Assembly: GCA_964353775.1 (NCBI GenBank)
Contig: CAYGWB010000006.1
Span: 115,991-179,990 of the forward strand
Reading direction: 5' to 3'
DNA length: 64,000 bases
Origin: an uncultured archaeon
GTDB taxonomy: Archaea > Aenigmatarchaeota > Aenigmatarchaeia > Aenigmatarchaeales > JAHLMS01
The notes beneath the pieces are model-generated. The model was not told the DNA's origin. It was given only the letters and a program-made list of their open reading frames with translations, and searched no databases. Below, one piece after another: positions 38,952 to 60,157 of the stretch; positions within the stretch are counted from its first letter, which is position 1, and each line of letters begins with the position of its first letter. The position numbers and the translations under genes are program-made.

Positions 38952-39848
38952 TTAATCGTTTCTAGAGCTCTTTTGTGAGTCCTTTTTGACTTCCTTGCCC
39001 CAGAATATCCTGTTTGAGCGGCCAGTTCGCTCAAGTTTCACAAGTCCGCGTTCGTTCAAAGATTTCAGCACTTTCGACACTTTTGCCTTGGAATAGCCGC
39101 TTTCCTTCACAATCATCTTCTGATTTACACCGCTGCCGTGCTTGATTAGTCCTTCGAGAACAGATTTCTCGTCCTTCTTCAGCACGGGCAAAATAATTTT
39201 CATGTTCTCTTTCGAAGAGTTGCTGAAATAAAATTTGTAGGCGATGCCGCCCGCTATCGCAACGATTGCGAGAACAGCAATCAAGATATTCGTTGCTGAT
39301 GAGAAACCTGTCTGCTCGTACGCGATCGATGCGGACCATTGGTCACTGACATCTTTCGCGGTCCAGCTTATCAAAATATTTCTGCCGTCCGTGCCGATTG
39401 TCGCACCTTCCGGCTCGATCGCATCTGCTATCGGTTCCTTGAGCACTATTCCTGCCGGAAGTTTCACGTTCACTTTAAAATCCGAAGCTGGCTCAGTAAG
39501 TCGGAAATTGTCAGCCCACACTAGCCAATCTCCTTTGCGGTTGATGCGTTCTGAAGAAGTATAATCGACCGTGAAGAAGTTCACTGGATTGTCACATATT
39601 ATGTTCGTCTGCAGCAATGCCTTGTCGATGCGGCACGTGCTCGGACTCACCACAACGTCCTTCGGTGTTCCGGGTATGACCATTATCAACCCGGAAGAAT
39701 ATTTTGTGAAGTTGATGGAAGTGTGATATGTTGCAGTGCTGTCCGATATACTTACATCTACGGAATAGCCTTCTATTTGGGCAGCCACCGGCACCGTCAT
39801 TATCCCGAACAGGACTAGCGCCAGTGCGACCATTATTGGAGTTTTCAT
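38952..39848 (-). CDS. Membrane-tethered winged-helix regulator (signal peptide, extracellular domain, TM, cytoplasmic wHTH)
   Basis: A 298-aa protein. The C-terminus LEGLIKHGSGVNQKMIVKESGYSKAKVSKVLKSLNERGLVKLERTGRSNRIFW is a MarR/TrmB-type wHTH that follows a TM helix. Confidence 0.5.
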   Translation of the reverse strand: MKTPIMVALALVLFGIMTVPVAAQIEGYSVDVSISDSTATYHTSINFTKYSSGLIMVIPGTPKDVVVSPSTCRIDKALLQTNIICDNPVNFFTVDYTSSERINRKGDWLVWADNFRLTEPASDFKVNVKLPAGIVLKEPIADAIEPEGATIGTDGRNILISWTAKDVSDQWSASIAYEQTGFSSATNILIAVLAIVAIAGGIAYKFYFSNSSKENMKIILPVLKKDEKSVLEGLIKHGSGVNQKMIVKESGYSKAKVSKVLKSLNERGLVKLERTGRSNRIFWGKEVKKDSQKSSRND

Positions 39849-40336: not shown

Positions 40337-41365
40337 TCACGGACTTTTGGGCGACCATTTTCTGCCCGCAATCGGTATTTTCGCGCCGCATCCGGGGCAT
40401 TTCGAGTCCTTCGTAAGGTCCATCCTCAGAACGCTTATCCCACTACGTTCTATGAGCATCCGCCCGCAGTCCGGGCAGTAAGTGGACTCATAATTATGGT
40501 CGGAAACGTTTCCAAGGTAGACGAACCTCAGGCCTTCATTTCGCGCTATATTATATGCCTTTTCCAGCAGCTTCACGTCCGGGCTAGGCAGCTGGAGCTT
40601 GTAGGACGGGAAGAAACGGATGAGATGTAAAGGTGTGTCTGGTCCGAGGTTCTCTACGATCCATCTGCAGAACTTCTTCATGTCTGCCATGGATTCGCCG
40701 TGCTGAGGAACTATCAGATTAGTGACCTCGATGAACACCTTGTTCGCCTTGTACGCCAGCAGCGCATCGTATATCGGCTGGACGTTCGGGACGTTGGACA
40801 GCACTTTGTAGGCCTCAGGATTGCCCGACGCTTTGAAGTCTATGACAGAGGCGTCCAGATGCTTGGATATTTCCTTTATCGTTTCCGGGCTGGTGTAGCC
40901 GTTGGTTACCCAGCAGTTGTATAGGCCGGCCTTCGAGGCGAGCTTTGCGCAGTCGAATGCGAACTCGTAGAACATCGTCGGTTCGACATATGTGTAGCAT
41001 ACGCCCGCGCAATCCTGTTTCTTTGCCGCCTTGACGATATCCTCAGGCTTCCACTCACGACCCGCTATGGTCTGCCAGTTCTGCGAGAGCTCGGCGTTGC
41101 AGCAGAACTTACATTGGAAGTTACAACCAACAGTGCTAATAGAGAACGTTTTCGAACCTGGAGCGAAATGGAAGAACGGTTTCTTCTGGATAGGATCGAT
41201 GTTGACGGCGGCTATCTTGCCGTAGTTGAGAGAAAAGAGCTTTCCGCCCAAGTTCTGCCTGACCCGGCAGAAGCCTGTGCCCTGGTCTGGAATCCTGCAC
41301 TTTCTTGCGCACAGCTGACAACGCACGAACTTGCCCTCGGTCTTCCAGAACTTTGCCGCGTGCAT
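40337..41365 (-). CDS. AmmeMemoRadiSam-system radical SAM enzyme (PFL-activase-like)
   Basis: It has an N-terminal CQLCARKC...GFCRVR cluster, the radical-SAM motif GCNFQCKFC, DPIQKKPFFHF, and a C-terminal CPDCG...CPGCG ribbon. Confidence 0.65.
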   Translation of the reverse strand: MHAAKFWKTEGKFVRCQLCARKCRIPDQGTGFCRVRQNLGGKLFSLNYGKIAAVNIDPIQKKPFFHFAPGSKTFSISTVGCNFQCKFCCNAELSQNWQTIAGREWKPEDIVKAAKKQDCAGVCYTYVEPTMFYEFAFDCAKLASKAGLYNCWVTNGYTSPETIKEISKHLDASVIDFKASGNPEAYKVLSNVPNVQPIYDALLAYKANKVFIEVTNLIVPQHGESMADMKKFCRWIVENLGPDTPLHLIRFFPSYKLQLPSPDVKLLEKAYNIARNEGLRFVYLGNVSDHNYESTYCPDCGRMLIERSGISVLRMDLTKDSKCPGCGAKIPIAGRKWSPKSP

Positions 41366-42423: not shown

Positions 42424-42497
42424 GCGTCCGTAGTCTAGCGGTAGGATTTGAGCTTCCCAAGCTCGCGACCCGGGTTCGAATCCCGGCGGGCGCACCA
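42424..42497 (+). tRNA. tRNA-Gly (anticodon CCC), CCA encoded
   Basis: Acceptor GCGUCCG/CGGGCGC, anticodon loop UUCCCAA, and T-arm CGGGUUCGAAUCCCG. Confidence 0.8.
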
Positions 42498-42510: not shown

Positions 42511-43050
42511 ATGTCAACTATTTGCATGCAACAAGCACCTCCGATGCAGCCGGTACCTCCGCTCGGGCCGCCTCCTAGACAGCAAGGAACGCCACGCGAA
42601 AACATGCTTGCACACTTTCACCCTTCACGACTCGCTTTCTTCAAGCTGTACGTTTCGGCCATAGCACTCATTGTTATCACGCTTTTGCTCCAGACAGAAT
42701 TGATGCCAACCATTGTCCAACAATATAGATTATACACATTGGTGCTTATTGCACCGGCCGTGATACTTCTATTATTGGCCGAGCTCAGACGGATGACCGA
42801 TACCTATACAATAACAAACCTTACCGTTGTAGAGCGCATCGGTATCCTGCGTATCAACGAGAGCTTCGTAAACGTCGACAAAATATCGAGCACCACCATC
42901 AAGCAGTCGCTGTTAGACCGTCTGTTCGACATAGGCTCAATTGAAATGTGGTCGACGGGCGGGTCGGACGAACCTGAGATATCGATAGAAAAGATAGCGA
43001 ACGTACGACGCACAAAACAAATAATTGACCAGCTAGTGCAGCAGAGCTAG
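42511..43050 (+). CDS. Membrane protein with a bacterial-PH (bPH_2/YdbT-like) domain
   Basis: A 179-aa protein with a Pro/Gln-rich N-terminus, two TM helices, and then the ITNLTVVERIGILRINESFVNVDKISS pattern. Confidence 0.45.
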   Translation: MSTICMQQAPPMQPVPPLGPPPRQQGTPRENMLAHFHPSRLAFFKLYVSAIALIVITLLLQTELMPTIVQQYRLYTLVLIAPAVILLLLAELRRMTDTYTITNLTVVERIGILRINESFVNVDKISSTTIKQSLLDRLFDIGSIEMWSTGGSDEPEISIEKIANVRRTKQIIDQLVQQS

Positions 43051-44087
43051 ATCATCTGTAGCCTGTGAATTCTCAGATAAGGCTGCTTGTCCATCATCTG
43101 GACCTTGCCCCATACGCGGTAGCGCGCAGACGGTCGCGGTGTTATGCCCTTGCCCACAGCGATCATCCTGTTGTGCAGCCTGAATACGATGTCGCCGTTC
43201 TGATATTTCTTTATCGGATCGAGCGTACCGTGCAATACCACGCGTTTGCCGGCATGACCGGCAGTAATCTTGGTAACGTCGATTATGTGTTCATATCTTA
43301 GGAAGGCCGTTGACATGCCGAACGCTGCCGCCAATATTGCGGCGCCTACGACCAGCGGCAACCACGACGGTAACGCCGCTCCCATCGGTTCTTTCTGGAT
43401 TAGATGCGCGTTTCGTGCGGACTCTGCTGCGCTGTCGGCCAGGTTCTTTGCTACGGCCCAGTTCTGATTGCCGAAAGCGTTCTGCGCTTCGGCGAAAGTG
43501 CTCTCCGCACCGCTGACGTCCTTGCCCTCGGACTTTGCGGTCTGGATTGCTGCGGCGGCGGTCGCTATAGCAGCGCTCGCATCTGCTTCCGTAACTGTCG
43601 GTTGCTCTGACGGAGGCATCGTACAGACCTGCGTTTCTGTGTATGACTTGCAGGTGTAGTTGGTAGTTGCGTTGCACCTGTAATTTGTCCTGCTCTGATT
43701 GCTGTCAGCGCACGTTGACCATGCGGTCGGAGCTGAGCAGTTCGGACAGCTCCTTGTTCCGCCACCACCTAAGCTGCCGCCGCCTCCGCTCGGGCCGCCT
43801 CCGCCACCTCCGCTCGAACATGCGCTAGTGTTGAATGTGCAGCTCGCAGTGCAGGTCAGTGTACCGCTAACATAGCCCAAACCAGTACAGGTCTGTCCGT
43901 TGAGATTCGTGCCGTCACAGCTCTCCGATCCTGTTATAGAACCGTCCCCGCATATCTGAGTTATGTTGCCGCCGATTCCTCCGGCAGAAATATTGCCGCC
44001 GGTCTCAGCGAGCGGTGCGGCCATTGCCAGAGCTGGCAAAAGTAGCAGAATCGGAATCAATATTAGTACAGCTCGCATTTCTATCAC
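43047..44087 (-). CDS. Secreted/membrane Cys- and Gly-rich protein with a C-terminal OB-fold-like domain
   Basis: A 346-aa protein with a signal peptide, a Cys-rich region, a poly-Gly tract, a helical region, a TM helix, and a C-terminus KRVVLHGTLDPIKKYQNGDIVFRL. Its start overlaps the stop of the giant gene by 4 nt. Confidence 0.45.
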   Translation of the reverse strand: MIEMRAVLILIPILLLLPALAMAAPLAETGGNISAGGIGGNITQICGDGSITGSESCDGTNLNGQTCTGLGYVSGTLTCTASCTFNTSACSSGGGGGGPSGGGGSLGGGGTRSCPNCSAPTAWSTCADSNQSRTNYRCNATTNYTCKSYTETQVCTMPPSEQPTVTEADASAAIATAAAAIQTAKSEGKDVSGAESTFAEAQNAFGNQNWAVAKNLADSAAESARNAHLIQKEPMGAALPSWLPLVVGAAILAAAFGMSTAFLRYEHIIDVTKITAGHAGKRVVLHGTLDPIKKYQNGDIVFRLHNRMIAVGKGITPRPSARYRVWGKVQMMDKQPYLRIHRLQMI

Positions 44088-47000
44088 GCATAGATACCGA
44101 ACGCATACGTCGTCGAATAGCTGGCCGGATATGTTCCAGCCGGTATCGTCTGATTCAGTATAAGAGTTGTCCAGCCGCTCGTAATGTTCAGCGCATCGAC
44201 TGCCTCTGTCTCATTGTATGAATTCAAAATGTTATAAGTCTTCCAAGTGCCGGTCGCGTTCTGGTACTGCAATCTCGCGTAGCTGGCGACTGGTATGATG
44301 TGTCCTGAGCCGTCTGTCCAGTTCGCGACCTTCATCCTTATTCTGGTTCCGCCGGAAGCGCTGACGTTGAACGTCCACTGCCAATAGTCAGTACCGCTCG
44401 CGCTGGCTGACGTCTTGTCAGGCGTTATCGAGTTGATGAATATCGCGAAGCCTGTGTTGTCCACCGTGAAGTTCTTTATACTGCTCGTTGTATATCCTAT
44501 GTTGGCGTTGTCTGAGGCTTGCACATTTGCTTGGAAATCCGACAGGTTTGCGGCGCAGCCAGCAAAACTGCAGTTCCATGTTGCGCTCCAGATATTGTTC
44601 ACCGGATCGGTAAGGGCTAGATTAATGCTATTACCTACACCAGGCAGAACTCCAAGAGGGGTTGCATTGGTTATGACGGCTATCGTAGCATTGATTCCGG
44701 ATGAAACGCCGCCCGATATTGGATCGAAAACCTTCGCGCTGATTGTTATGTTCTGATAACGCTTGACATGATTCTGACCGAGCGGGTATGTTATCGTCAC
44801 GTTGGTCACGTTCGGGAGTGTATTGTCGACGAAATAATAGACTGTCGTTGAGTTCCTGTTGCCAGCGGTATCATTAGCAACAACTTGAAGTTCGTGTATT
44901 CCTTCAGTAAATGCCACTGACACATTTCCTGTCCAGACAGTCGGCGTTATGTTTGTGAGCACGACGCCGTTGGCTGTAACCACTGACACACCTGACGGGT
45001 CTGAGGCTGTAACGTTCACGGTCATGTTATTTGCAGGGAACACATTGCCGACATAGTACGGCGGGTTGCGATCCAGAACGACCGAGCTGATTAATGCTCC
45101 TGTTGTGTCGACGGTAAAGTTGTTCAGCACGGAGACGTTGCTGTTTCCTGCCAGGTCCGTACAGTTTATGGATATGTTGTGCTGGCCGGTCGTTAACGAC
45201 AGCGTCACGTACTGCGTCGTTCCGTTTATCACGCTTGCCAGTGTGCTAGGCACTGCGTCCAGTGTGTAATAGCAGTTCAATGTGGACGAGAAGTTGTCCC
45301 ATGGCGTGTAGATGAGCTGCGTCGGATTCGTCCAAGTGCTTCCGTTGGCCGGAGCTGTCAGATTGATGTACGGCTTGCTGCTGTCAACTGTCAGTTTCCA
45401 TATCGTGCTGTCGGAAGCGCCGCCTCCTGCATCTATGGAGCTGACCCTCCAGTACCATATGCCCTGTTGTGATGTCCAAGTGTAGTTGCGGTCAGTCCAC
45501 GTGTTGTTGTACTCGGGCGAGAGCATGTTCGGGCTGTTGTCGATCTTGATGGTGTAGTTCACAGCGCCTGAGACGTTTGTCCAGTTGAAGTAGACCGTGC
45601 TGTTGGTCGTTATCGTCCCGTCGGCCGGGCTCACCAGGTCTGGTGATGGCAGCTGTCGGATGAACGTTTCGGATGAGTCTGCAGGCCAGGACATCGTAGA
45701 ATAGAACGTGTATCCGGACGTAGCACCGCTGACAATCGTTGAATTGTCATACTCGATAGTCGCCTGAACAGTTTTGTATGGCATCCCGCTCGAGCTGATG
45801 TTGTAGACGACATGAATGATCTTCGATGTTCCGTTGGTTATTATATAGGAGGTCGGTGCGAGCTCGTATGGCGACGAAGTGTCAGAAGCACCAGGTATCG
45901 GCATGCTCGGACCGCTGCTGTCATTCCAGAGCTCGACAGCTGTCAGGTTGGTGTCGTCAGCCGTGCCAGTGAACAGAACAGAGACATTGTTTAGCGTGAT
46001 GTTCTCGCCAAAGGCTGTCAAGTTCAATCGCAACATCCCGACGCTCGTACCTCTGGCCGCAGTATACGGTGCCTCGTCGGTCCAATTAGCCGTCAATATT
46101 CCATAGACGCGCGTCGTCACTGACACACCAGATGAAGGCGTGTAGTACTGCGCTGGATTCGTGGTTATGTTGCAGGTAATCAGATGCACGCCTGCGGTTG
46201 TCGGTGTCCATGTTATGTTGGACCACCCATCGAAGAGCGTATAGTTGTTTCCCAGGAATCCGGTCACGTTGGACCAGAAGTTCACGTAGTGGCTGGAAAG
46301 CGGTGAGGTCGTGTTCGCATCCACCACCCTGCATGCCAGGTTCACTGGAGTGTTTATCTGGGTTGCTGCTGGCAGGTTTGTCTCATTGACCCTTGACCAA
46401 CCCCATATCTGGATCGGCCATAGCAGACGATAATCGTCATAATAGCTCAGGTTGGTGCTGACATTCAGGACCCATACGCCAAGCGGCGTCCAGCTCTCGT
46501 TGATGTACCACGTTACATTCTCCCAGTTCGTTGTCAGGTTGGCCATCGGTGGCGTGACGTTGGTCAGGTTGGTAGAATTGATGAACCATTTCAGCGGCGG
46601 TGGCGGCACTACATTACCGTTCTCATCAAAACCAGTGACGTTCGCGCTGATGTTCTGAGTCTTGAAGAATATCTGGCCTGACACGATGTTGGTTATGTTC
46701 AGGTACAGCTTGCCCTTTATTGTCAGATATGTGGTGTTCTGGGTCGAGCTCGTGTAGTATGGGCCAGAGGCGTTGGCCATTATCGAATAGTTGCCTGGCG
46801 TCGTAGTGTTAGGCGGGTTCCAGTCGGCCTGGCACACTCCCGGGCTTAGTATCGAGTCTGTCGTGCAGTTGGCTAGCAGTGCGGGCGAGAAAGTCGCGTT
46901 CCAGAAGCTTATGTTGATATTTGGAATTTCCGCTCCTAACTCGTCCTTGACCTCGGCCCTGAAGGTAGTTACGTATGGCGTGAAGTTGTCATTCCTGTAT

Positions 47001-50000
47001 ATCGGGTTCGGACTCACGCTCATGAATATAATATAGAGATTACCGTACAGACTGGTGCTGCCTGTCCAGTTGTTGTTCACGGTGTCATTGAAGTATAATG
47101 TCTCGTTGTCCGTGATGTTGCAGGTGATGTTGTATGGACCGACCGCTTCGTTCGTGGTGTTCCAGTTCCAGACGGCTATTCCGCTGCTGTTCGTCAGGTT
47201 CGTGCCCAACAGTGTACTATTGTCGCGCCAGAAGCGTACGGGATAGTTCGTTATGCCGGCCGAAGTGTTGACGTTCGAAACTAGGCAAGCGACATTGGCA
47301 AAAGTACCGCGCTGATAGGTCGGGCTGAGAGCAGTTGCGTTGGTTATGTTCGCCCAACCCCAGATGGTCGAGAGCGCAGAGCTGTAGGGCTCTGAACCGT
47401 TCGCCTGGATCGGTAGAACGGACGTGTTGCCGATTGCGCTGATGTTGCTGTTGTTGAGTGTGACTCCGAGCGTGAATGAATTGAACGCGGTACCGGAGAT
47501 GTTGTAGAGTACGTGCACGACCTTCCAGCCGCCGGCAGGCACGACTATCGGTTGCGTCAGGGTCAGGTTCGCGACGCCACCGTTGAAGGTCGCAGGTACT
47601 GTCAGGCTTAGCGATTTGTTCGGAATGCCCGCGCTGTCGTTCCACAGCTCAATTGCGCTGACGTTAGTGTCTGTAGCTGTTCCGGTCAGCGTCACATTTA
47701 TCTGGGTGACATTGATGGTTTCGCCTTCTGCGCTGAAGTTGAGCTTCAGCATGGCGACGCGTCTCTGGTCGACCTGAACGCCGCCAGGAGCCTCGCTAGT
47801 CGAACTCACGTTCAGCTTCCCGTAAATCCTGAGTTCGGACAAAGCGCTGTTGTTCACAGAGGCCGTGTAGTATGAGGCGTTATAGTCAGTGAAGTTGCAT
47901 GTGATGTTATGTACGCCTGCGTTTGGCCAGCTGTAGGTTATGTTGGCCCAGCCGGTGCTGTCCGTATTGTCGGCGCCCAACATTCCGCTTATACTGGACC
48001 AGAAGCGCACGATGTAGCCGTTGAGCGGCGCGTTTGTGACATTGTCAGTGACCCTGCAGCTGATGTTGACAAGCGTGTTTATCGAGCCATTGACAGGTAT
48101 CGACGTGCCGTTGATCATTGAGTAGCCCCAGATTTGGATCGCCTTTGTCTGGGTGCTGTCGAAATAATAAGTGCGATTCGCTATCGCGTTCAATGAATAG
48201 TCGCCGAGTTTGAATGTCTGGTCGACGGTCCAGCTGTAGTTCTCAGCACCGTACGGGCTAAGGGTAGTGTTCCATGTGACGTTGTTCAATGTCCATGTGA
48301 CGTTGTGGTCTGTCATTACCGTGCCGTTCTCGGCTCGCGTAGTCGAATTGACGTTGTAGGTGACGTTCCTGTAGAACTTCTGGCCGGCTATGACGTTGGT
48401 AATGTTGATGTTCAGTGCACCTTGGACGACCACCCAAGTGTAGTTCGTTGTCGATGGGTTGTAGCCTGACTTTGTCGCGTTGACCGCCAGTGTGACATTG
48501 CTAGGTTCGAAGTTGTTCGGCGGGTTCCATGTGACCGAGCAGAAGCCGATGGCGTTTGTAGTACAGTTGCAGGGCTTCGTTCCGTCCGTGCAGTTGTAGA
48601 GCAGGTTGCCCGTACTGTTGTCATACCACGAGACCGTGGCGTTCAGAACGCTCGCACCTGCGGTGTCCTTGATGTGAGCGGAGAGCGAGGCCGTGTACGG
48701 CGAGTAGCTGTCGTTCCTGTAGATGAATTGGTTGTCGACGCTGTACTCGAAGATGCTCAAGGTGGCAACTACGGATATCAGTGAGGAGTTCGAGTTGCTG
48801 GCAGATGCCGTGTAATATTTTATATCGCTGCCGGTGATGTTGCACGTTACGTTGTAGACTCCTGCGGCCGCCCAACTATAAGTGGTGTTGGCCCAGCCGG
48901 TGCTGTCCGTGGTGGATGAATTTATCAGTGTGTCATTTGACCAGAACTGCACGCTGTAGCCTGATATGTTGGCGTTTGTTACGTTGTCGGAAACCCTGCA
49001 TGCCAGAGCGGTTGTCGTGTTGGCCGGCGTGCTGGCCGGTATTGCAGTGCCGTTGATCATTGAGTAGCCCCAGATTTGGATCGCCTTTGTCTGGGTGCTG
49101 TCGGTGAAGTAGGTCAAGTTTGCGGTCGCGTTCAGCGAGTAGTCGCCAATCTTCAGCCCAGTACCTACAGTCCAGCTGTAGTTCTCAGCACCGTACGGGC
49201 TAAGGGTATTGTTCCATGTGGCATTGTATAGCCGCCATGTTACACTATGACTGGTCATCGCGGTTCCGTTCTCGGCGCGCGTTGTCGAATTTATGAAGTA
49301 GTTGACGTTCCTGTAGAACTTCTGCTCGTCCACTACGTTGGTCATGTTTAAGATCAATACGCCTTGAACGACCACCCAGGTAGAATTCGTGGTCGATGGA
49401 TAATAGTTCGTTCCTGTAGCGTTTACGTCGAGCGTGATGTTGTTCGGCTCGAAGTTGCTTGATGGGTTCCACTGCACAGAGCAGAAGCCTATTGGGTCAG
49501 TCGTGCAGTTTCCTATCAAAGCACCGTTAGTGGTGTCCCACCAGGTGACGTTCGCGTTCTGCACGCTATCACCAATCGCATCCTTGATGTGGGCGGACAG
49601 TGTCGTGATGTAAGGCGAGTAGCTGTCGTTCCTGTAGATGTAAGCGTTATCGCGGGCGTACTCGAAAATTACCAATCTGTCCGTCAGATTTATCTGACCT
49701 GCCTTGCCTGCAGCATTCAGGTCAGCCGTATAGTAGAGCGTGGCGTTGTCGGTGATGTTGCATGAGATGTTGTAGAGTCCTACTGGATCGGTCGGCACGT
49801 AGTTCCATGTGGCATTTCCGACTGAATTTGTCAGTATCGTCGTGTTCTTGACGCCGTTCTTCCAGAAGTCCACAGGATAGTTGGCTATGCCGTCTCCTGT
49901 GACGTTGTCCCGGACCCTACAGATTATCGGAATCGGAATGAGGCTGCGGTTCTGCGAGTAGTCCATGGCTGTCATGTTTGTGATGTTCGAATAGCCCCAT

Positions 50001-51346
50001 ACCTGAGCGTTGACCTTCTGGTCGGTATCATCATAGTACGATTTGTTGGCGACGGCCTTCACGTAGCTCCATCCGAGGGTCTCGTTTCTGCTGACGTTCC
50101 ACGTAGTGTTCTCCGGTCCGTACAGCGGCGTGATGTTCTTGGTCGCGCCGAGATACCAGCTGACATTCACGGACACGTTGTTTCCGAATTCATTCACAGT
50201 CGTCGAGTTGAGCCAGTAGCTGACGTTCCTGTAGAACTTCTGCCCCTCAGTAACGCTCCTGATCGTTATTCCCAGCCTTCCTCTGACATCGACGCTCGTG
50301 CTTGTCGTCGTGAACGGAGTGTAGTAGTCCTTTGTGCCGTTGACGTTGATTGTCTGTGAGCCTGGCGCGTAGCTGTCCGGTGGGTTCCAGATTATCCAGC
50401 ATCTTCCGCTGGCTGTCGTACAGTTGCAGGATCCGCTCGAGGGACCGTTAGATGTTTGGGTGCAGTTGTCCAGTAAATTGGAAGTTCCATTCCAAAATCT
50501 AACAGCAACTCCGTCTACAGTGGCGGAATAGCTGTCACGCACGGTCAGCGATATGTTGAGAGTATTAGGCGTATCACTGTTGCTGCGATATATGTAGAGA
50601 TTATCCCTATTGAGTTCTGCTAAAGTCAGCGTGTCATTCACGTTCGACAATCCGGACACATAACTGAAATCCACATTGTAGTATGAATAATCGGATATGC
50701 TGCAGCTAATATTGTGTTGGCCTGGAAGGTCACCGCCACCTGGCGACCATGTCCATGTTGCGAGACCGCTTGGGTTGGTTGATACGGTTGTTTGTGGGAC
50801 ACCGCCCTTCATGAACGTGATTGGGTAGCTGTCTATGTCACCAGTGCTGTTCGAATCCGTCACCTTGCATGTGTATGGGATGCTGCCGACGCCGCGCAAG
50901 ATGCCGGGCGAACTCAACGGGGTCGTGTTCGTGAGATTTGAATATCCGAATACGGTAAATTGTTTCTGGCTAGTGACGTTCTGGCTTCCGGTCGAATTAT
51001 TGGCGAATATTTTGACATTATATACACCTAGGTTCGAGCCAGAGTTGGTAGAGATAACATGGAATGACCAGTTCGAGGCCAAGCCAGCGATTGCCGTATC
51101 ATTTGCCCAAGAGGCGCCAGCATCCTGATGGCTGAGCCACGTGAAACTTGCGGTTTCGTTCCATTTCGCGCTTACATTGACAGCCTCTCCTTTGTGTATG
51201 ATGCTTGCGTTCACAGCGGCATCGGTCGTATAGCCTATGGCAGCGAGCGCCTGCACCGCATAGAAAGCGAAGGCTATGACTATCAAGCCGACGAGCGCCA
51301 TCGCGCCCAGCTTCGCCAGACCCTTATTTCTTCGGTATATAGACAT
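44084..51346 (-). CDS. Giant (about 2400 aa) N-glycosylation-sequon-rich surface protein with tandemly repeated beta-rich modules (adhesin-like)
   Basis: A single 7.26-kb ORF. The N-terminal signal anchor MALVGLIVIAFAFYAVQALA starts at Met16 (nt 51301). It carries hundreds of N-x-S/T sequons and about six copies of a roughly 310-aa module marked by AIQIWGYS / PIQIWGWS / QFTVFGYS. An FN3-like segment lies near the C-terminus. Confidence 0.65.
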   Translation of the reverse strand: MSIYRRNKGLAKLGAMALVGLIVIAFAFYAVQALAAIGYTTDAAVNASIIHKGEAVNVSAKWNETASFTWLSHQDAGASWANDTAIAGLASNWSFHVISTNSGSNLGVYNVKIFANNSTGSQNVTSQKQFTVFGYSNLTNTTPLSSPGILRGVGSIPYTCKVTDSNSTGDIDSYPITFMKGGVPQTTVSTNPSGLATWTWSPGGGDLPGQHNISCSISDYSYYNVDFSYVSGLSNVNDTLTLAELNRDNLYIYRSNSDTPNTLNISLTVRDSYSATVDGVAVRFWNGTSNLLDNCTQTSNGPSSGSCNCTTASGRCWIIWNPPDSYAPGSQTINVNGTKDYYTPFTTTSTSVDVRGRLGITIRSVTEGQKFYRNVSYWLNSTTVNEFGNNVSVNVSWYLGATKNITPLYGPENTTWNVSRNETLGWSYVKAVANKSYYDDTDQKVNAQVWGYSNITNMTAMDYSQNRSLIPIPIICRVRDNVTGDGIANYPVDFWKNGVKNTTILTNSVGNATWNYVPTDPVGLYNISCNITDNATLYYTADLNAAGKAGQINLTDRLVIFEYARDNAYIYRNDSYSPYITTLSAHIKDAIGDSVQNANVTWWDTTNGALIGNCTTDPIGFCSVQWNPSSNFEPNNITLDVNATGTNYYPSTTNSTWVVVQGVLILNMTNVVDEQKFYRNVNYFINSTTRAENGTAMTSHSVTWRLYNATWNNTLSPYGAENYSWTVGTGLKIGDYSLNATANLTYFTDSTQTKAIQIWGYSMINGTAIPASTPANTTTALACRVSDNVTNANISGYSVQFWSNDTLINSSTTDSTGWANTTYSWAAAGVYNVTCNITGSDIKYYTASASNSNSSLISVVATLSIFEYSVDNQFIYRNDSYSPYTASLSAHIKDTAGASVLNATVSWYDNSTGNLLYNCTDGTKPCNCTTNAIGFCSVTWNPPNNFEPSNVTLAVNATKSGYNPSTTNYTWVVVQGALNINITNVIAGQKFYRNVTYNVNSTTRAENGTVMTDHNVTWTLNNVTWNTTLSPYGAENYSWTVDQTFKLGDYSLNAIANRTYYFDSTQTKAIQIWGYSMINGTSIPVNGSINTLVNISCRVTDNVTNAPLNGYIVRFWSSISGMLGADNTDSTGWANITYSWPNAGVHNITCNFTDYNASYYTASVNNSALSELRIYGKLNVSSTSEAPGGVQVDQRRVAMLKLNFSAEGETINVTQINVTLTGTATDTNVSAIELWNDSAGIPNKSLSLTVPATFNGGVANLTLTQPIVVPAGGWKVVHVLYNISGTAFNSFTLGVTLNNSNISAIGNTSVLPIQANGSEPYSSALSTIWGWANITNATALSPTYQRGTFANVACLVSNVNTSAGITNYPVRFWRDNSTLLGTNLTNSSGIAVWNWNTTNEAVGPYNITCNITDNETLYFNDTVNNNWTGSTSLYGNLYIIFMSVSPNPIYRNDNFTPYVTTFRAEVKDELGAEIPNINISFWNATFSPALLANCTTDSILSPGVCQADWNPPNTTTPGNYSIMANASGPYYTSSTQNTTYLTIKGKLYLNITNIVSGQIFFKTQNISANVTGFDENGNVVPPPPLKWFINSTNLTNVTPPMANLTTNWENVTWYINESWTPLGVWVLNVSTNLSYYDDYRLLWPIQIWGWSRVNETNLPAATQINTPVNLACRVVDANTTSPLSSHYVNFWSNVTGFLGNNYTLFDGWSNITWTPTTAGVHLITCNITTNPAQYYTPSSGVSVTTRVYGILTANWTDEAPYTAARGTSVGMLRLNLTAFGENITLNNVSVLFTGTADDTNLTAVELWNDSSGPSMPIPGASDTSSPYELAPTSYIITNGTSKIIHVVYNISSSGMPYKTVQATIEYDNSTIVSGATSGYTFYSTMSWPADSSETFIRQLPSPDLVSPADGTITTNSTVYFNWTNVSGAVNYTIKIDNSPNMLSPEYNNTWTDRNYTWTSQQGIWYWRVSSIDAGGGASDSTIWKLTVDSSKPYINLTAPANGSTWTNPTQLIYTPWDNFSSTLNCYYTLDAVPSTLASVINGTTQYVTLSLTTGQHNISINCTDLAGNSNVSVLNNFTVDTTGALISSVVLDRNPPYYVGNVFPANNMTVNVTASDPSGVSVVTANGVVLTNITPTVWTGNVSVAFTEGIHELQVVANDTAGNRNSTTVYYFVDNTLPNVTNVTITYPLGQNHVKRYQNITISAKVFDPISGGVSSGINATIAVITNATPLGVLPGVGNSINLALTDPVNNIWSATWNCSFAGCAANLSDFQANVQASDNANIGYTTSSIKNFTVDNTGFAIFINSITPDKTSASASGTDYWQWTFNVSASGGTRIRMKVANWTDGSGHIIPVASYARLQYQNATGTWKTYNILNSYNETEAVDALNITSGWTTLILNQTIPAGTYPASYSTTYAFGIYA
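46380..50930. repeat. Tandem array of roughly 940-950-bp repeats inside the giant gene
   Basis: Blocks of 24 to 54 nt are identical between copies at 48107-48160/49048-49101, 48217-48253/49158-49194 and 47935-47958/48882-48905. More diverged copies sit near 46393, 47352 and 49990. Confidence 0.7.
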
Positions 51347-51461
51347 AGGATCGTCCTACCTTTACCATGTGCAGAAGGCCCTTCGACCGCATGGCCTCTA
51401 AGAAACCGGCCGTGAAGTCCCTGCGCAACCCGACCTCTCGGGCTAACTGGGAAACCGACAT
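51324..51461 (-). CDS. Small winged-helix DNA-binding protein upstream of the giant gene (not in the ORF track)
   Basis: The reading frame gives ...TEDTESRILKLLRANPMSVSQLAREVGLRRDFTAGFLEAMRSKGLLHMVKVGRSYVYIPKK (ArsR/Lrp-type wHTH). The only ATG would truncate helix 1, so a TTG at 51476 or a non-canonical start is possible. The stop overlaps the annotated first codon of the giant gene. Confidence 0.35.
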   Translation of the reverse strand: MSVSQLAREVGLRRDFTAGFLEAMRSKGLLHMVKVGRSYVYIPKK

Positions 51462-51836
51462 GGGGTTTGCCCTAAGCAACTTGAGGATACGGCTTTCTGT
51501 GTCTTCTGTCGTCTAACCACCTATAGTTACTACGTTGAGTATGATATGGTCGGTATTTAAAGATTTATATCGTGAGATATATCAGTTTGAAATCAAGTAG
51601 TATGTGGACTCTACGTGTATTCTATTAGGTATCTATGTTGTTTTTCATATCAGTACATATGTATTATGTATGTAATTCACCACATTAGTACAAATGTCGT
51701 ATATATGTTGATTATTATTTGATAATCACATGATATTCTTAAGATTACTATATAGTAACCATACCCCCTTAGGGAGCCCTTTGGCTAAGGAATCGGAGGA
51801 ATAAAAGATATAAGCTTCCACCAGCAATTGCCATTC

Positions 51837-51911
51837 GGGCCGGTGGTCTAGCGGTATGACGTCACCCTGACACGGTGGAGGTCGTCGGTTCGAATCCGAC
51901 CCGGCCCACCA
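51837..51911 (+). tRNA. tRNA-Val (anticodon GAC), CCA encoded
   Basis: Acceptor GGGCCGG/CCGGCCC, anticodon stem UCACC/GGUGG with loop CUGACAC, and T-arm GUCGGUUCGAAUCCGAC. Confidence 0.8.
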
Positions 51912-51920
51912 GTGATCATT

Positions 51921-53210
51921 ATGAAAATGTTCGCCGATCTGCACATACACTCGCACTTCTCTCGGGCGACTTCGAAGGACATGAACATAGTCAATCTGGA
52001 GAAGTACGGGAAGCTGAAGGGCATCAACCTGATCGGATGCGGGGACTTCACGCATCCGGACTGGCTGGCCGAGCTGAAGGGCGTGCTGAAACCTGTGGGC
52101 GACTCCGGCCTTTTCCATCACACCGATGAGGGCATGTTATTCGCGCTGAGCGCCGAGATTTCTCTTATATACAGCCAGGACGGGCAGGTGAGGAAGATAC
52201 ACAACGTGCTGCTCGCGCCGTCCTTCGATGTGGTAGACCAGATAAACGAATGGCTCGGAAAGCGCGGGAATCTTTCGGCGGACGGCAGGCCGATATTCGG
52301 AAAGATAACCTGCCCTGAGTTCGTGGAAGCGATGATGAAGATTTCTAAAGACATAATGGTGATACCTGCGCATGCGTGGACGCCGTGGTTCTCACTGTTC
52401 GGTTCGATGTCCGGCTTCGACAGGATAGATGACTGCTTCCAGGACCAGACAAAGAACATTTTTGCGATCGAGACCGGCCTGTCGAGCGATCCGGCAATGA
52501 ACTGGCGGCTGTCGCAGCTCGATAGGTTCGCGCTCGTCTCGAACAGCGACTGTCACAGCTACTATCCTTGGAGACTCGGACGCGAGGCAAACGTGTTTGA
52601 CATCGAGCCCACGTATGCGAATATGATAGACGCCATAAAGACCAAGGACCCGAAAAGATTCCTGTTCACGATCGAAACTGACCCGAAGTACGGCAAATAC
52701 CACTGGGACGGCCACCGATTGTGCAATGTCGTTTTCTCTCCGAAGGAAGCGGAGAAGCACAAGAACATCTGTCCGGCATGCCGAAGGCAGCTGACAATCG
52801 GCGTGGAACACCGCGTAGAAGAACTGGCCGACAGGCCTGAGGGCTACGTACCGAAGAACGCCATACCGTTCAGATCCATGCTTCCGCTGTCCGAGCTCAT
52901 TGCAGGGCTATATAATACGCAGGCGTTCTCGAAAAAAGTGTTCGAGGTGCATGCGAAGCTGATGAAAGAGTTCGGAAATGAGTTGGCTGTTCTGCTGGAA
53001 GTGCCGGAAACGAAGTTGAAAGATGTGGTGAACGATAAAATCGTCTCCGCGATAATAACGAATAGAAGGGGCGGTATACAAGTCCAGCCCGGATATGACG
53101 GCGTCTACGGGAAAGCCATATTCGGGGCTGAAGAACTGGCAAAGCCAGAAAAAATAAAAAGGCCGCAGGCCTCACTCAGCGATTTCCTTAATTCTTCCCA
53201 ATCGCGCTGA
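51921..53210 (+). CDS. Endonuclease Q-like PHP-domain nuclease
   Basis: N-terminal DLHIHSHFSRATSKDM and GCGDFTHPDW (PHP metal ligands), a length of about 430 aa, and a C-terminal zinc finger KNICPACRRQ. It matches the Pyrococcus EndoQ architecture. The ORF track begins at a GTG at 51912, directly abutting the tRNA. Confidence 0.65.
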   Translation: MKMFADLHIHSHFSRATSKDMNIVNLEKYGKLKGINLIGCGDFTHPDWLAELKGVLKPVGDSGLFHHTDEGMLFALSAEISLIYSQDGQVRKIHNVLLAPSFDVVDQINEWLGKRGNLSADGRPIFGKITCPEFVEAMMKISKDIMVIPAHAWTPWFSLFGSMSGFDRIDDCFQDQTKNIFAIETGLSSDPAMNWRLSQLDRFALVSNSDCHSYYPWRLGREANVFDIEPTYANMIDAIKTKDPKRFLFTIETDPKYGKYHWDGHRLCNVVFSPKEAEKHKNICPACRRQLTIGVEHRVEELADRPEGYVPKNAIPFRSMLPLSELIAGLYNTQAFSKKVFEVHAKLMKEFGNELAVLLEVPETKLKDVVNDKIVSAIITNRRGGIQVQPGYDGVYGKAIFGAEELAKPEKIKRPQASLSDFLNSSQSR

Positions 53211-54129
53211 TGGAGACCTGTTGCTCTGAATAATATCCGTAGCCTGCGTTGAAGCTGACGGCATACCCTGTCTTGACGCTTGGCGGGTTCAGCACTTCCA
53301 CGTCACAGATTATGCTCGTCCTTCCACCGACCATCTGGATGTTCTGATAGCACTCGCTGCTGCTTATCTTCAGGTTCTTGCTGCCGTCCAGACCGGTTAT
53401 CTGAAGATTCAAAACATTCAGGTTAGTCTCCGAAATGGAGAATCTGCTCACATCGTTGCCGTCTGCGACACCTGTTACACTGCCATAATTGTAGGAAACT
53501 CCGCCCCCGACATTGTCGAACGTCACCTCGATGGTGAAGGTCTCGCCTGCCATCTCTATGACCGGTGGATCAGGTGCTACCCTGACTGTCATCGCTACCG
53601 GCCCTTTGGTCGTCACGAAATTCGATGACTCCAGAGTCTCGCCGCGCTCTCGCGCAGCTGTCGCCTCAGATGGCGGATATATAAATATCGTTCCTAGAGC
53701 AGTCGTGTTATAGTCGTAGTAGACCCTGCCCGTGAAGGTGAAAGGCTTTGTCTGTCCTCTCGGTAGGGTCGGCGCTTTCAGCGTCCATGTCTCTATCTGC
53801 ATGTCAGCAGGTATTCCGCGCACCGGGTCTGCCGGTCGCAGGCTCTTAGAGAAGCTGCGCACCAACATCTTGTCCGTCGGGCCCCATTCATCCGCGCCTA
53901 TCAATAGAAGTCCTCCGCCCTGCCTAACTGTGGTCTCGCCCTGGTTCTCTATCGACGCTGTCACGCGTACGTTGCTGTCGCTGTACACCTCTGTCTGATC
54001 AGAAGAGAAATCAGTAATCTCAAGGCCGTTGCCAGTTGTTGTGGTGGGCGTACCGCCCTGAGTGCAGCCGGCCACAAGCATTACGCCTAGAACCAGCAGC
54101 ACGAGCGTGATTTTTTTGTTGAAAAACAT
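53188..54129 (-). CDS. Secreted lipobox protein with beta-rich Ig/CARDB-like domains
   Basis: The signal peptide MFFNKKITLVLLVLGVMLVAGC carries a lipobox. The Thr/Gly/Val-rich beta pattern is CARDB-like (RVTASIENQGETTV). Confidence 0.5.
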   Translation of the reverse strand: MFFNKKITLVLLVLGVMLVAGCTQGGTPTTTTGNGLEITDFSSDQTEVYSDSNVRVTASIENQGETTVRQGGGLLLIGADEWGPTDKMLVRSFSKSLRPADPVRGIPADMQIETWTLKAPTLPRGQTKPFTFTGRVYYDYNTTALGTIFIYPPSEATAARERGETLESSNFVTTKGPVAMTVRVAPDPPVIEMAGETFTIEVTFDNVGGGVSYNYGSVTGVADGNDVSRFSISETNLNVLNLQITGLDGSKNLKISSSECYQNIQMVGGRTSIICDVEVLNPPSVKTGYAVSFNAGYGYYSEQQVSISAIGKN

Positions 54130-54141
54130 TACATCATCCTC

Positions 54142-54999
54142 CTATTTGTTTTTTATTTTGATAGTGAAGCTATTGTCAAGCTCGTATTTATAGTTTGCGG
54201 TCAGACTTATCGTTCCCGTGCTCACTGGGCTGTTGCCGGCTTTCGTACTGAACGTGCAGGTGCTGCGCGGCGCAGCCTTGTTTATGAACGACAGGTTGCG
54301 GTTTAGGTCGATTCCCGTGTAGTGGTTGCAATCCGAATCTTTGATATTGTCCGGCATAGTGAGCTTCACAGAACCGCTGGCCAGATTGTCGATGAATCCA
54401 CCGCCCGTGTCTGTATAGTCGATGAACATGCTTACCGTCTCGTTGTCCGCCCAGGGCTGCTCGCTGCCGAAGGTTATAGTGATAGAGACCGGGCTGTTCG
54501 ATGCGGACATGCCTGCAGTGATGTCGCCGAGCGTGCCAGCGGCTTCTCTGGCAGTATACTCCGCGTCTGAAAGGACCGTGACGCTCTGGCTAAGGCTCGC
54601 GTTCCCTTCCCAAGAAGTCCTGAACTTTATCTCGCAGTCTGTGTCGAACTGTACGGCAGGCGCGGTCCATCTGGGGTTCCAACGCAGGGTCCTGTTGGAT
54701 GTGAGGTTGTCCTTATGGTATGTGAAACCGTCCTGATCCGACCGGAACCCGCAGGTCTCGTAGACGTTGATATTGATGTTATACAAATCGGACTGCTGCG
54801 TGTTGGTGATGTCAAAATTAACGCTCATGTTCTTTTCTTCCCTGACCTCTGCCGGCACTGCGGCAACGGACATACTCATGTCAGTGTTAGTTACGGATGT
54901 CGTACCGGCTATCGGTCCGATCTGCGACTTTTGCCATGGCATCGAAACGCAGCCAGAAACGAGTATGGCAAGTGCGAGCAACAATAGCATATAGCGCAT
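54142..54999 (-). CDS. Secreted lipobox protein, beta-rich (paralogue-like)
   Basis: A signal peptide with the lipobox ILVSGC. The protein is 285 aa. Confidence 0.5.
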   Translation of the reverse strand: MRYMLLLLALAILVSGCVSMPWQKSQIGPIAGTTSVTNTDMSMSVAAVPAEVREEKNMSVNFDITNTQQSDLYNININVYETCGFRSDQDGFTYHKDNLTSNRTLRWNPRWTAPAVQFDTDCEIKFRTSWEGNASLSQSVTVLSDAEYTAREAAGTLGDITAGMSASNSPVSITITFGSEQPWADNETVSMFIDYTDTGGGFIDNLASGSVKLTMPDNIKDSDCNHYTGIDLNRNLSFINKAAPRSTCTFSTKAGNSPVSTGTISLTANYKYELDNSFTIKIKNK

Positions 55000-55035
55000 G
55001 CTATTACATCACAATATAGATAGATAAATCTTTTG

Positions 55036-56007
55036 TTAGCCTGTCAGTTCCGTGTTGATCGAGACGGACTGCTCGGCCGCCAGGTCGTAGGAATATGTGT
55101 AATTGGCTATTACCGTGAACACCTTTGTCACGTCGACCGACGGCGCCGTCAGTCCGCACCTTACCTGGATGCTCTCTTTCTGTACCATGTTGATGGTCTT
55201 GTTGTTGGTGTATATCTTAAAGTCGCCGTCCGTGTTAGTGGTATCCTTGAAGTAGCCGCCGCAGTTGTCAGTATCCATCGTCAAATCCTTCGGAATTCTC
55301 AAATCCAGGTTGCCTGTCACTATGTCCCGCAACGCGCCTGTCCCCTTGTCTTCAACCTGTATGAACAACGGTAGCGTGTTGCCGCTCTTGACTGGCAGGC
55401 TCGCGCCCCAGCTGAGGCTTATCTTGACCGGACCGGGACCGATCGTTGTCGTCGGGCTGAACGAAGCTGACTCTCCGGACCTCTGCAGCCGTTTGAGCTC
55501 ATCGGCGTTTATGACCTGCGCGGTCGATGTGCTCACGGACTCCATGGTGTAGTTGACCTTCCATCTTACCGGACAGGTCGCTTCCAATCCGCCTGTCTGC
55601 GCCTTTGTCGGCGCAGTGAAGCCGAGTTCGAAGAACTCCGTCTGCTGCGGCACTAGTTCGCCCATGTCCTTAAAGTAGGCCGACGAGCCGACTGCAGTAA
55701 AGCCTGTGGTCGTGCTTGCTGTGCAGAGGCCCCAGTCGTACAGAAGCACGCCGACGTTTTCCACTGGGAAATCGCCCGTGTTGATGACCTTGAAGTTGAG
55801 CTCGAATGTCTCGTCTGGTGAAACGCTAGAAGGAATGATGTTGATATCAGAAACTTGGATGACATCCGCCGGTGCCTCCTTTACCTCGCCTGGCTGGCCG
55901 AAGAGCCCTTGGAAACCGCCGCCGCTGATGCAGCCAGCAACGGCAACGACTGAAATCAGGAGCAGTGCGAACATCGCTTTTTGCATGATATCAATACCGT
56001 TTACCAT
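55036..56007 (-). CDS. Secreted lipobox protein, beta-rich (paralogue-like)
   Basis: A signal peptide with the lipobox VAVAGC. The protein is 323 aa. Confidence 0.5.
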   Translation of the reverse strand: MVNGIDIMQKAMFALLLISVVAVAGCISGGGFQGLFGQPGEVKEAPADVIQVSDINIIPSSVSPDETFELNFKVINTGDFPVENVGVLLYDWGLCTASTTTGFTAVGSSAYFKDMGELVPQQTEFFELGFTAPTKAQTGGLEATCPVRWKVNYTMESVSTSTAQVINADELKRLQRSGESASFSPTTTIGPGPVKISLSWGASLPVKSGNTLPLFIQVEDKGTGALRDIVTGNLDLRIPKDLTMDTDNCGGYFKDTTNTDGDFKIYTNNKTINMVQKESIQVRCGLTAPSVDVTKVFTVIANYTYSYDLAAEQSVSINTELTG

Positions 56008-56019
56008 ATATTTAATACT

Positions 56020-58916: not shown

Positions 58917-58985
58917 CCTCGCTTTTACCTGTCATGAATGGAAGCATCATAACAAATAACTCCGTATCCATACTTATATTATTGC

Positions 58986-60149: not shown

Positions 60150-60157
60150 GCTAATTC

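Follow-up and report, generated by a model that had tools for sequence, protein, structure and literature searches.

A giant sequon-rich protein of Ig-like domains and its three-gene cassette in an uncultured archaeon of the Aenigmatarchaeota

DPANN archaea rely on physical contact with host cells, and to our knowledge the contact molecules are mostly unknown outside Nanohaloarchaeota and Nanoarchaeota. Here we describe a cassette of three genes, centred on the gene of a giant, most probably surface-exposed protein of 2420 amino acids (aa), in a 64,000-nucleotide (nt) stretch of DNA from an uncultured archaeon of the Aenigmatarchaeota (assembly GCA_964353775.1, contig CAYGWB010000006.1, forward-strand positions 115,991 to 179,990; hereafter the window, whose numbering is used for its features). 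The giant gene is preceded by a small gene of a winged helix-turn-helix (wHTH) protein and followed by the gene of a membrane protein, referred to below as the partner. The closest described systems are the SPEARE proteins of Nanohaloarchaeota, the S-layer pair SlaA/SlaB of Sulfolobus acidocaldarius and the repeat-built adhesins of Bacteria.

The SPEARE proteins (e.g., SVXNc_0300) are giant surface proteins of DPANN archaea with immunoglobulin-like (Ig) repeats (PMC10266531), defined by a tandem Ig-like ectodomain that is followed, in the same polypeptide, by a transmembrane (TM) helix and a cytoplasmic VirB4/TraG-like ATPase (PMC10266531). The giant protein of the window resembles them in its DPANN host, in its N-terminal export signal, in consisting mostly of tandem Ig-like or fibronectin-like domains, in the variation of Ig-domain number among relatives and in the proposed role in host-cell attachment. 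However, it is of 2420 aa versus 5,000-9,400 aa, has an extreme density of sequons, is accompanied by a single-pass protein that is encoded separately, downstream of it, and has a cytoplasmic OB fold, and ends in a soluble beta-rich domain with neither a C-terminal TM helix nor a VirB4/TraG-like ATPase, which places it outside the SPEARE definition; this comparison is one of features.

Another comparison is with the S-layer proteins SlaA and SlaB, whose genes are adjacent in Sulfolobus. In Sulfolobus acidocaldarius (PDB 8qox) SlaA may contact the stalk through its C-terminal domain, D6 (PMC10903991). Both systems combine a large secreted, in our case presumably N-glycosylated, beta-sandwich protein with a separate membrane-anchored protein having a helical region near the membrane, and in both the outer protein is more variable than the anchor. 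This gene logic, in which a membrane-anchored stalk protein comes after a large beta-sandwich protein rich in sequons (PMC10903991), would suit a reading of the giant and its partner as a surface layer or sheath of two components instead of an adhesin fibre; moreover, the 924 aa of the S-layer-family protein encoded in the same genome contain about 1 sequon, so that most glycans of the outer coat could be borne by the giant. Of the features of an SlaA/SlaB-type layer, the gene pairing is indeed present. However, the partner carries a cytoplasmic OB fold and has Cys-rich modules where SlaB has beta-sandwich domains, our searches revealed no homology in sequence to either SlaA or SlaB, sequons occur at 7.4 per 100 aa versus ~2.2 in SlaA (31 in 1424 aa), and the orthologues of the giant vary by whole modules (1558 to 2420 aa), which is extender-like and hard to fit into a fixed lattice. 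Besides, a dedicated and syntenic S-layer family gene of the S_layer_C type is present. A two-component layer of this kind seems to us quite improbable.

Bacterial adhesins (intimin/invasin, SiiE, Bap, LapA, MpIBP) share with the giant protein the rod-like arrays of Ig extenders and the strain-polymorphic repeat number. In contrast to them, the giant protein has an archaeal Sec-type export context with no signals of type 1 or type 5 secretion systems, its modules are heterogeneous and three-domain rather than near-identical single domains, N-glycosylation sequons are dense, and the intimin/invasin-type Big_1 model (PF02369) scores only 16.8 bits against a cut-off of 34.9.

The cassette and the giant protein

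The cassette and the S-layer family gene of the window are placed as follows.

51324..51512, minus strand: small winged-helix (ArsR/TrmB-like) gene of 62 codons, start position ACG 51512-51510, stop TAA 51326-51324
44084..51346, minus strand: gene of the giant predicted surface glycoprotein, an uninterrupted open reading frame (ORF) of 2420 codons, 2420 aa
43047..44078, minus strand: gene of the partner membrane protein, 343 aa, whose orthologues adjoin the giant gene in the related loci L084, L086, L088 and L089
35901-38675, minus strand: S_layer_C / TIGR01564 S-layer family gene, 924 aa

We are highly confident that the giant gene encodes an exported multi-Ig surface protein, selected for sequons, and that it stands in a conserved three-gene cassette. 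A giant, repeat-built and sequon-dense surface protein had been proposed in the first-pass annotation, and the ORF, the N-terminal hydrophobic segment, the sequons and the repeats were all recovered by our analysis. An identical 2420-aa protein is present in the NCBI record, from a 187,959-bp contig; without its first 35 residues it is of ~259 kDa and acidic (pI 4.7).

There are 180 N-x-S/T sequons in the giant protein (7.4 per 100 aa), with 63% of all its Asn residues sitting in them. Shuffling of its own Asn/Ser/Thr-rich composition gives an expectation of 63 +/- 6.5, and the mirror control motif S/T-x-N occurs 66 times; the density is 0-2 per 100 aa in other long ORFs of the window and 7.3-8.0 per 100 aa in three orthologous giants. 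The sequons of this protein are under selection, and the strong enrichment noticed earlier stands, although "hundreds" of sequons was a mild overstatement. An N-glycosylated surface protein is expected to combine an export signal with sequons enriched beyond composition; the enrichment is clear here, and the sequons probably carry N-glycans that form a dense coat. We recognised no AglB gene within the window. As to the S-layer-family protein, encoded 5 kb from the giant gene with its 180 sequons, it carries about one (0.1 per 100 aa), and if both proteins are on the surface, glycosylation would be concentrated on the giant protein rather than on the S-layer-family one.

The cassette is conserved in at least four related lineages. 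Their loci were reached through the exhaustive HMMER search described below and through the partner gene, whose orthologues align over the full length at 58, 54, and 45% identity. In L084, of which L087 and L085 are byte-identical copies in other deposited assemblies, a 62-aa wHTH gene overlaps the gene of a 1794-aa giant by 23 nt, and the gene of a 339-aa partner follows after a 5-nt gap. L089/L090 have a 63-aa wHTH protein, the same 23-nt overlap, a 1558-aa giant and a 369-aa partner (40% identical over the full length). The contig of L086, a locus from a metagenome-assembled genome (MAG) of Aenigmatarchaeota, begins inside the wHTH gene and continues with a 1587-aa giant, a 5-nt gap and a 312-aa partner, while in L088 only the C-terminal end of the giant and a 342-aa partner are visible. 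The operon-like arrangement of wHTH, giant and Cys/Gly-rich partner genes suggested by the first reading thus recurs, with the same order and the 23-nt overlap, in L084/L087 and L089/L090. After the partner, L086 carries radical-SAM, MJ0538, DUF7343, S_layer_C, and glycosyltransferase genes, and the window matches this arrangement for the radical-SAM, DUF7343, S_layer_C, and glycosyltransferase genes. Its gene content is archaeal (tetraether lipid synthase Tes, type III RuBisCO, AMP phosphorylase, S_layer_C-type protein, 23S rRNA, RNase P RNA), and the closest RuBisCO sequences among the GTDB species representatives (67-71% identity) belong almost all to Candidatus Aenigmatarchaeota MAGs. With RuBisCO best matches and the syntenic L086 both in this group, the small-genome archaeal context proposed for the locus is plausible and probably correct.

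The domain layout of the giant protein, derived from chunked self-comparison, motif mapping and domain hidden Markov models (HMMs), is signal/anchor, N0, (A-B-C)x3, A-X, A-B-C, A-X, C-terminal region. Whole-protein blastp against itself returned the identity match only, and the repeats were recovered by chunking the protein. The parts following the N-terminal segment are these:

50954..51241, minus strand: N0 domain, aa 36-131; by reading, a similar stretch precedes the A domain in P0002, P0003, P0005, P0006, and P0034
48134..50953, minus strand: three tandem A-B-C modules, aa 132-448, 449-757, and 758-1071, each modelled as three Ig-like beta-sandwiches
47366..48133, minus strand: A4-X4 unit, aa 1072-1327, from domain HMMs
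46409..47365, minus strand: fourth A-B-C module, aa 1328-1646, one-to-one orthologous in all relatives
45701..46408, minus strand: A6-X6 unit, aa 1647-1882, orthologous in all relatives
44087..45700, minus strand: C-terminal region, aa 1883-2420 (538 aa), with an FN3-like domain, Big_13-type Ig domains and the terminal domain
44087-44506, minus strand: terminal domain of ~140 aa, ending in ...YAFGIYA, which also closes P0034 and P0069

In total, the protein comprises about 22 beta-sandwich (Ig-like) domains. A fold check on a single module, recommended in the first-pass annotation, gave a model of three Ig-like sandwiches; of the at least five tandem ~310-aa modules counted there, the repeats ~942 nt apart are real, but they resolve into four full A-B-C modules and two shorter A-X units. 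No Pfam model exceeded its cut-off for the A, B, C, X, or terminal domains, and N0 had no Pfam match. Big_13 (PF19077) reached 37.7 bits (cut-off 27) over two stretches when the C-terminal 550 aa were scanned alone, versus 24.6 bits, under the cut-off, on the whole protein; precomputed Big_13 matches in the orthologous giants are flagged weak or faint. The X domain had no match in Pfam or among PDB sequences, a profile search of PDB included, and neither the profile search of PDB with the terminal domain nor the single-sequence search with the C-terminal region gave an informative match.

Relatives of the giant outside the cassette are distant. P0002, P0003 ("Thermoplasmata archaeon DRN08_00535"), P0005, and P0006 share the A domain (WGW/YS...C...D...F(Y/W)N.T...GW...CNIT) and, by reading, an N0-type domain before it and C-like domains, being N-x-S/T-rich by inspection. 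However, they differ in architecture, C-terminal domains and gene neighbourhood, and the loci L001-L003 lack the wHTH and anchor genes. When 1.84 billion representatives were searched exhaustively by HMMER with the C-terminal 550 aa, no more than three clusters matched over the full length; a further protein, P0069, shares the terminal domain only. Word-indexed searches with the giant protein returned only distant proteins sharing A, N0, or Big_13 domains, in loci without the neighbour genes; such searches with the whole giant and with its C-terminal 550 aa missed the orthologues, probably because N/S/T-rich words saturate the candidates. A contig scan with the giant protein found no relative, and the single locus obtained in a metagenome scan with the alignment of the anchor (partner) protein has the same sequence as L084. 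The B, X, and terminal domains and the cassette as such are restricted to a small Aenigmatarchaeota-like group. The family is restricted in lineage and has domain types of its own, a wHTH gene that overlaps the giant gene and a separately encoded OB-fold membrane partner; it demonstrates no new principle.

P0069 itself (1356 aa, fragmentary, with Big_13-like repeats, matched in the representative library) has at its end the same terminal domain of ~130 aa (GSDYWEYRF...YGIQDYP), and therefore the terminal domain appears to be a reusable C-terminal module occurring beyond the cassette family.

History of the repeat modules

According to domain HMMs, the layout N0-(ABC)3-A-X-ABC-A-X-Cterm of the window corresponds to N0-ABC-A-X-ABC-A-X-Cterm in L084, N0-A-A-X-ABC-A-X-Cterm in L086 and N0-A-(other)-ABC-A-X-Cterm in P0034. 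The distal part, ABC-A-X-Cterm, is one-to-one orthologous at 56-72% identity (the C-terminal region being 72% identical to that of L084 and 63% to that of L086), and the N-terminal 131 aa are 39-41% identical between orthologues. Compared to L084, this genome has two extra A-B-C modules, i.e., six extra domains; the orthologous giants are of 1558-1794 aa. In the window B2 and B3 are 67% and C2 and C3 73% identical, versus 54-56% and 41-42%, respectively, to the L084 copies, so modules 2 and 3, being more alike than either is to the L084 copies, are lineage-specific in-paralogues. To judge from these alignments, the C-terminal core of the gene is conserved, and its N-proximal half is variable and can expand.

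The repeats had been described as recently homogenised. This would imply near-identical DNA copies and low synonymous divergence over the whole unit, which is not what we see: the best pair (aa 520-870 versus 826-1185, offset 942 nt) is 60% identical in protein, the remaining module pairs are 33-47% identical, and in DNA the copies are at most ~76-82% identical across a few hundred bases. Tandem Repeats Finder reported nothing for the region of 43-53 kb because the copies are too diverged. Within runs of 1-5 identical residues, codon identity is 48-54%, versus 42-44% expected at saturation with the codon usage of this gene, i.e., synonymous sites are near saturation. Runs of at least six identical residues behave differently, with a codon identity of 76% (Fisher p = 4e-4), and a run of 18 identical codons was equalled in length in 0 of 10,000 column shuffles. 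The short identical stretches of DNA at a spacing of ~941 nt reported in the first-pass annotation are genuine (57, 39, 27, and 25 nt) and lie near the places indicated there, the spacing being ~942 nt. The two longest are:

48105-48161 and 49047-49103, no strand assigned: 57-nt exact repeat, which encodes the C/A junction peptide DSTQTKAIQIWGYSMINGT
48228-48266 and 49170-49208, no strand assigned: 39-nt exact repeat, found by exact-match search

The other two are of 27 nt (48699/49614) and 25 nt (47941/48886). The peptide DSTQTKAIQIWGYSMINGT is not conserved at other module junctions or in the orthologues, so a protein-level constraint does not explain the 57-nt identity, which looks like a conversion tract. 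Taken together, the data fit an old tandem duplication followed by exchange of short tracts of up to 57 nt, as in micro gene conversion. Of the ongoing duplication, conversion or length variation suspected before, the length does vary on the evolutionary time scale and short patches have apparently been exchanged, but the duplications are old.

That the three consecutive A-B-C modules could be an expansion or collapse artefact of the assembly deserves attention, as the contig comes from a metagenome assembly and exact repeats of 57 and 39 nt are present. Nevertheless, the copies are at most ~76-82% identical in DNA, and ordinary reads and large assembler k-mers exceed 57 nt, the longest exact repeat; collapse or expansion is unlikely for this very reason. 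Furthermore, the ORF stays open through every junction, the modules begin and end where the domains of the orthologues do, and the L084 orthologue is byte-identical in three separately deposited assemblies (ENA, JGI, Logan). We consider an artefact extremely improbable.

One more feature of the repeats is the stretch coding for QKFYRNV (22-23 nt; at 48361, 49303, and 50221), which is nucleotide-identical in all three tandem C domains, including that of module 1, otherwise just 38-46% identical in protein to modules 2 and 3. This suggests that either all three copies have converted one another or an unexplained constraint acts on their nucleotide sequence.

Starts of the wHTH and giant genes

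The region where the two upstream genes of the cassette meet contains the following elements (SD, Shine-Dalgarno):

51554..51570, minus strand: AT-rich promoter-like box ATATAAATCTTTAAATA (archaeal TATA-like), conserved in L084
51516..51521, minus strand: SD-like AGGTGG, 3 nt 5' of the wHTH start position, shared by the window and L084
51242..51346, minus strand: N-terminal targeting segment of the giant protein, aa 1-35, with basic MSIYRRNKGLAK, a 19-residue hydrophobic stretch and an AxA-like site (QALA, then A)

The wHTH gene shares 23 nt with the start of the giant gene, and this overlap, retained in L084, L086, and L089, appears to be a conserved feature rather than an annotation fault. 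The first-pass annotation placed the start of the giant gene at Met16. This does not hold because Met1 is conserved in the orthologues and Met16 is not: a comparison of N-termini shows Met1 and the motif M-x-x-Y-x-(R/K)-x-K-G in four orthologues, while the site of Met16 is occupied by Ile in L084 and is unconserved in P0034. A start at Met16 would also delete the basic n-region. In three of these four, the stretch of the wHTH gene that codes for the wing contains an SD-like AAGGTRGG, 9-16 nt 5' of Met1; in L089 a variant, AAAGTGGGG, stands in its place. The targeting segment may be a cleaved Sec signal, a signal anchor or a class III signal.

The same annotation had noticed that the small upstream frame has no canonical start that would keep helix 1, and this is correct. 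The frame is open between TAG 51515-51513 and TAA 51326-51324, and no ATG, GTG, or TTG retaining the helix was found in it; the sole canonical in-frame start, TTG 51479, drops helix 1 and corresponds to a Leu codon CTC in L084, and the 51-aa version starting from it is absent from the protein collection. The cut-off of HTH_5 (PF01022) is reached only if helix 1 is included: the 62-aa frame scores 23.3 bits (cut-off 22) over residues 6-31, and the match is lost in the TTG-started version. NCBIfam HTH_metalloreg scored 27.3, below its cut-off of 55. The orthologues begin with ATG in L084 (62 aa) and L089 (63 aa), and the start region reads aggtggctagATG in L084 and aggtggttagACG in the window, i.e., the missing start is explained by an ACG at the place where the orthologues have ATG. 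A frameshift (GTG 51520 with a missing A in the AAA run) was ruled out, as the ATG of L084 and L089 falls exactly on this ACG.

The ACG may be a recent change of the start codon, a weak non-canonical start or a base error. The gene is under purifying selection with respect to L084 (ratio of nonsynonymous to synonymous divergence, dN/dS, 0.14 at dS ~1.1) and is therefore most likely functional in this lineage. A genuine loss of the start, with the regulator silenced or strongly under-translated in this population and the expression of the giant gene altered, agrees with the alignment of ACG to ATG between an otherwise conserved SD and promoter box, as well as with the lack of another canonical start that would retain helix 1. 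However, the 62-codon frame has remained intact under the selection mentioned, and so the change must be very recent, tolerated via low-level initiation at ACG, or else a base-call error or a minority variant; loss of the start is an explanation we put forward tentatively, with more doubt than belief. As to the promoter, in the alignment with L084 the ATATAAATCTTTA(A/T)ATA box is conserved and its flanks are not, which is consistent with a promoter role; a bacterial-type promoter/terminator scan is uninformative for archaeal DNA. The overlapping wHTH gene was probably missed by the annotation here because its start codon is non-canonical.

The membrane partner, display of the giant protein and the neighbourhood

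The start of the partner gene, according to NCBI and the orthologues, is ATG 44078 (MRAVLILIP...), which leaves a gap of 5 nt after the TGA of the giant gene. The 4-nt overlap with the giant stop reported before applies only to an alternative GTG 44087; with either start, the two genes would be tightly, and presumably translationally, coupled. From the N-terminus, the partner has a signal peptide, a DUF4215-like Cys-rich stretch and a Gly-rich linker, followed by:

43623-43748, minus strand: CPxC...WSxC...NYRC...TNYxC motif, aa 111-152
aa 164-222 of the protein: three-helix, Ala-rich region
43299-43364, minus strand: TM helix, ~aa 239-260, single pass
43050-43298, minus strand: basic cytoplasmic OB fold, a tail of 83 aa, aa 261-343

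It is Cys/Gly-rich, as had been noted, but not simply secreted, being a predicted single-pass membrane protein with a cytoplasmic tail modelled as an OB fold, possibly of the RPA / tRNA-anticodon-binding type. Its strongest conservation lies in this fold and not in the ectodomain. A single-sequence search of PDB with the protein gave no informative match. A fused homologue, P0006, contains the A domain; its C-terminal end carries the Cys motif of the partner (48% identity over 52 aa, pairwise E 7e-13) and, behind it, a TM helix.

We suppose that the giant protein is a glycan-shielded attachment fibre docked on the membrane partner, a model that as a whole appears to us reasonably probable. The 62-aa wHTH protein would be the presumed transcription regulator of the cassette, and the giant gene would be started at Met1, 23 nt inside the wHTH gene, behind its own SD-like sequence. 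The giant protein would then be exported, N-glycosylated at its sequons into a dense coat and displayed on the surface, its conserved C-terminal region docking on the Cys-rich and helical ectodomain of the partner and its variable, repeat-extended N-proximal part pointing outward as a long attachment or spacer fibre. The highly conserved basic OB fold in the cytoplasm suggests an additional intracellular role of the partner. C-terminal docking is proposed because of the conserved adjacency of the genes, the fused homologue P0006 and the SlaA/SlaB precedent. Glycosylation, the docking orientation, the adhesin function and the regulation by the wHTH protein are inferred, whereas we regard as shown the gene structures and starts, the domain architecture and folds, the enrichment of sequons, the synteny, and the age and mosaic nature of the repeats.

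Several points weigh against this model. Docking is argued from synteny, translational coupling and one fused homologue; the N-terminal third of the anchor model has a predicted local distance difference test score (pLDDT) of <35 and is uninformative on the interaction surface; no ligand-binding domain was identified in the giant protein; the ACG may be a sequencing error or a polymorphism; and the comparison covers just 4-5 lineages, all of them metagenome-derived. Finally, the 19-residue hydrophobic segment after the conserved K-G could stay in the membrane or be a class III signal, which would reverse the orientation.

In such a reversed arrangement the N-terminal segment would be retained as an anchor, or a pilin-like signal would be cleaved after K-G, the C-terminal region would be the distal tip, and the OB-fold membrane protein would act as a sensor/transducer rather than an anchor. 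Class III signals have [K/R]-[G/A] followed by ~20 hydrophobic residues, and K-G with the following ~20-25 hydrophobic residues is present in all four orthologues, including the divergent P0034; the h-region is longer than usual in a cleaved Sec signal. Conservation of the giant protein is highest in the C-terminal region, as expected of a receptor-binding tip with a conserved target, the terminal domain always stands at the extreme C-terminus, and the distribution of conservation in the partner, with its maximum in the cytoplasm, also suits this arrangement. On the other hand, three orthologues have an AxA-like cleavage site after the hydrophobic stretch, and a Lys at +3 after K-G, as found here, is uncommon in archaeal signals of the pilin type. 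We recognised neither a prepilin peptidase nor a pilus ATPase in the window, and in P0006 the Cys motif and the TM helix are at the C-terminal end of an Ig-rich ectodomain. We consider the reversed orientation unlikely and prefer docking of the C-terminal region on the partner.

A fibre docked in this way could also belong to an outside-in contact device rather than be a passive adhesin; in such a device the invariant, strongly basic OB fold would bind nucleic acid or capture the 62-aa wHTH regulator. If true, contact with the host would thereby act on gene expression or on how nucleic acids are handled where the cells touch; we know of no membrane-tethered OB fold coupled to a giant surface fibre described in archaea, and regard this extension as a long shot. 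Anyway, the cassette, recurring across lineages, is a concrete candidate contact system for Aenigmatarchaeota, in which a well-delimited core (A-B-C, A-X, the C-terminal region and the partner) is conserved and the outer half varies through the expansion of modules. It raises the questions of docking on the OB-fold protein, of glycan occupancy compared to that of the S-layer protein and of the effect of the ATG-to-ACG change on expression.

As to the genes around the cassette, the end of the partner gene is overlapped by 4 nt by a convergent bPH_2 (bacterial PH domain) gene (42511-43050, plus strand), with tRNA-Gly(CCC) just upstream of the latter (42424-42497); no terminator-like element was found between the convergent bPH_2 and partner genes. 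Between the S-layer gene and the cassette lie a radical-SAM gene (40337-41365, minus strand) and the gene of a 298-aa protein with a C-terminal DUF7343/MarR-type wHTH (38952-39848, minus strand), both syntenic in L086. The small wHTH gene is not a recent copy of the latter but its distant relative, with just 25% identity. On the other side, the cassettes of L084 and L089 are situated directly downstream of 3-5 GT2/GT4 glycosyltransferase genes (845-4212 in L084, where the cluster includes an EamA-like transporter; 1-4922 in L089, five genes), which possibly serve to assemble the glycans of the giant protein; on this side the window has tRNA-Val (51837-51911, plus strand) and an EndoQ-like TIGR00375 gene instead.

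Farther upstream, at 53188-62701 on the minus strand, there are seven consecutive same-strand ORFs (313, 285, 323, 707, 258, 387, and 847 aa) without a Pfam match above cut-off, the lone sub-threshold one being a double zinc ribbon (21.9 versus 27.3 bits). The 285-aa ORF of this run has 8.1% Asn and 2.1 sequons per 100 aa; in L002 a 285-aa ORF (230-1087) stands before the distant homologue of the giant. At the opposite end of the window, the archaeal 23S rRNA gene (5578-8925, minus strand) is of 3348 nt versus the 2987 positions of the Rfam model, and the ~360 extra bases could be an intron or expansion segments; it is adjoined by the archaeal RNase P RNA gene (4508-4802, minus strand), and no 16S or 5S rRNA was reported within the window. 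The methionine adenosyltransferase gene (9733-10929, minus strand) matches the TIGR01034 metK model with 587 bits, which we take to be a bacterial-type enzyme, unusual in an archaeon and possibly acquired horizontally.

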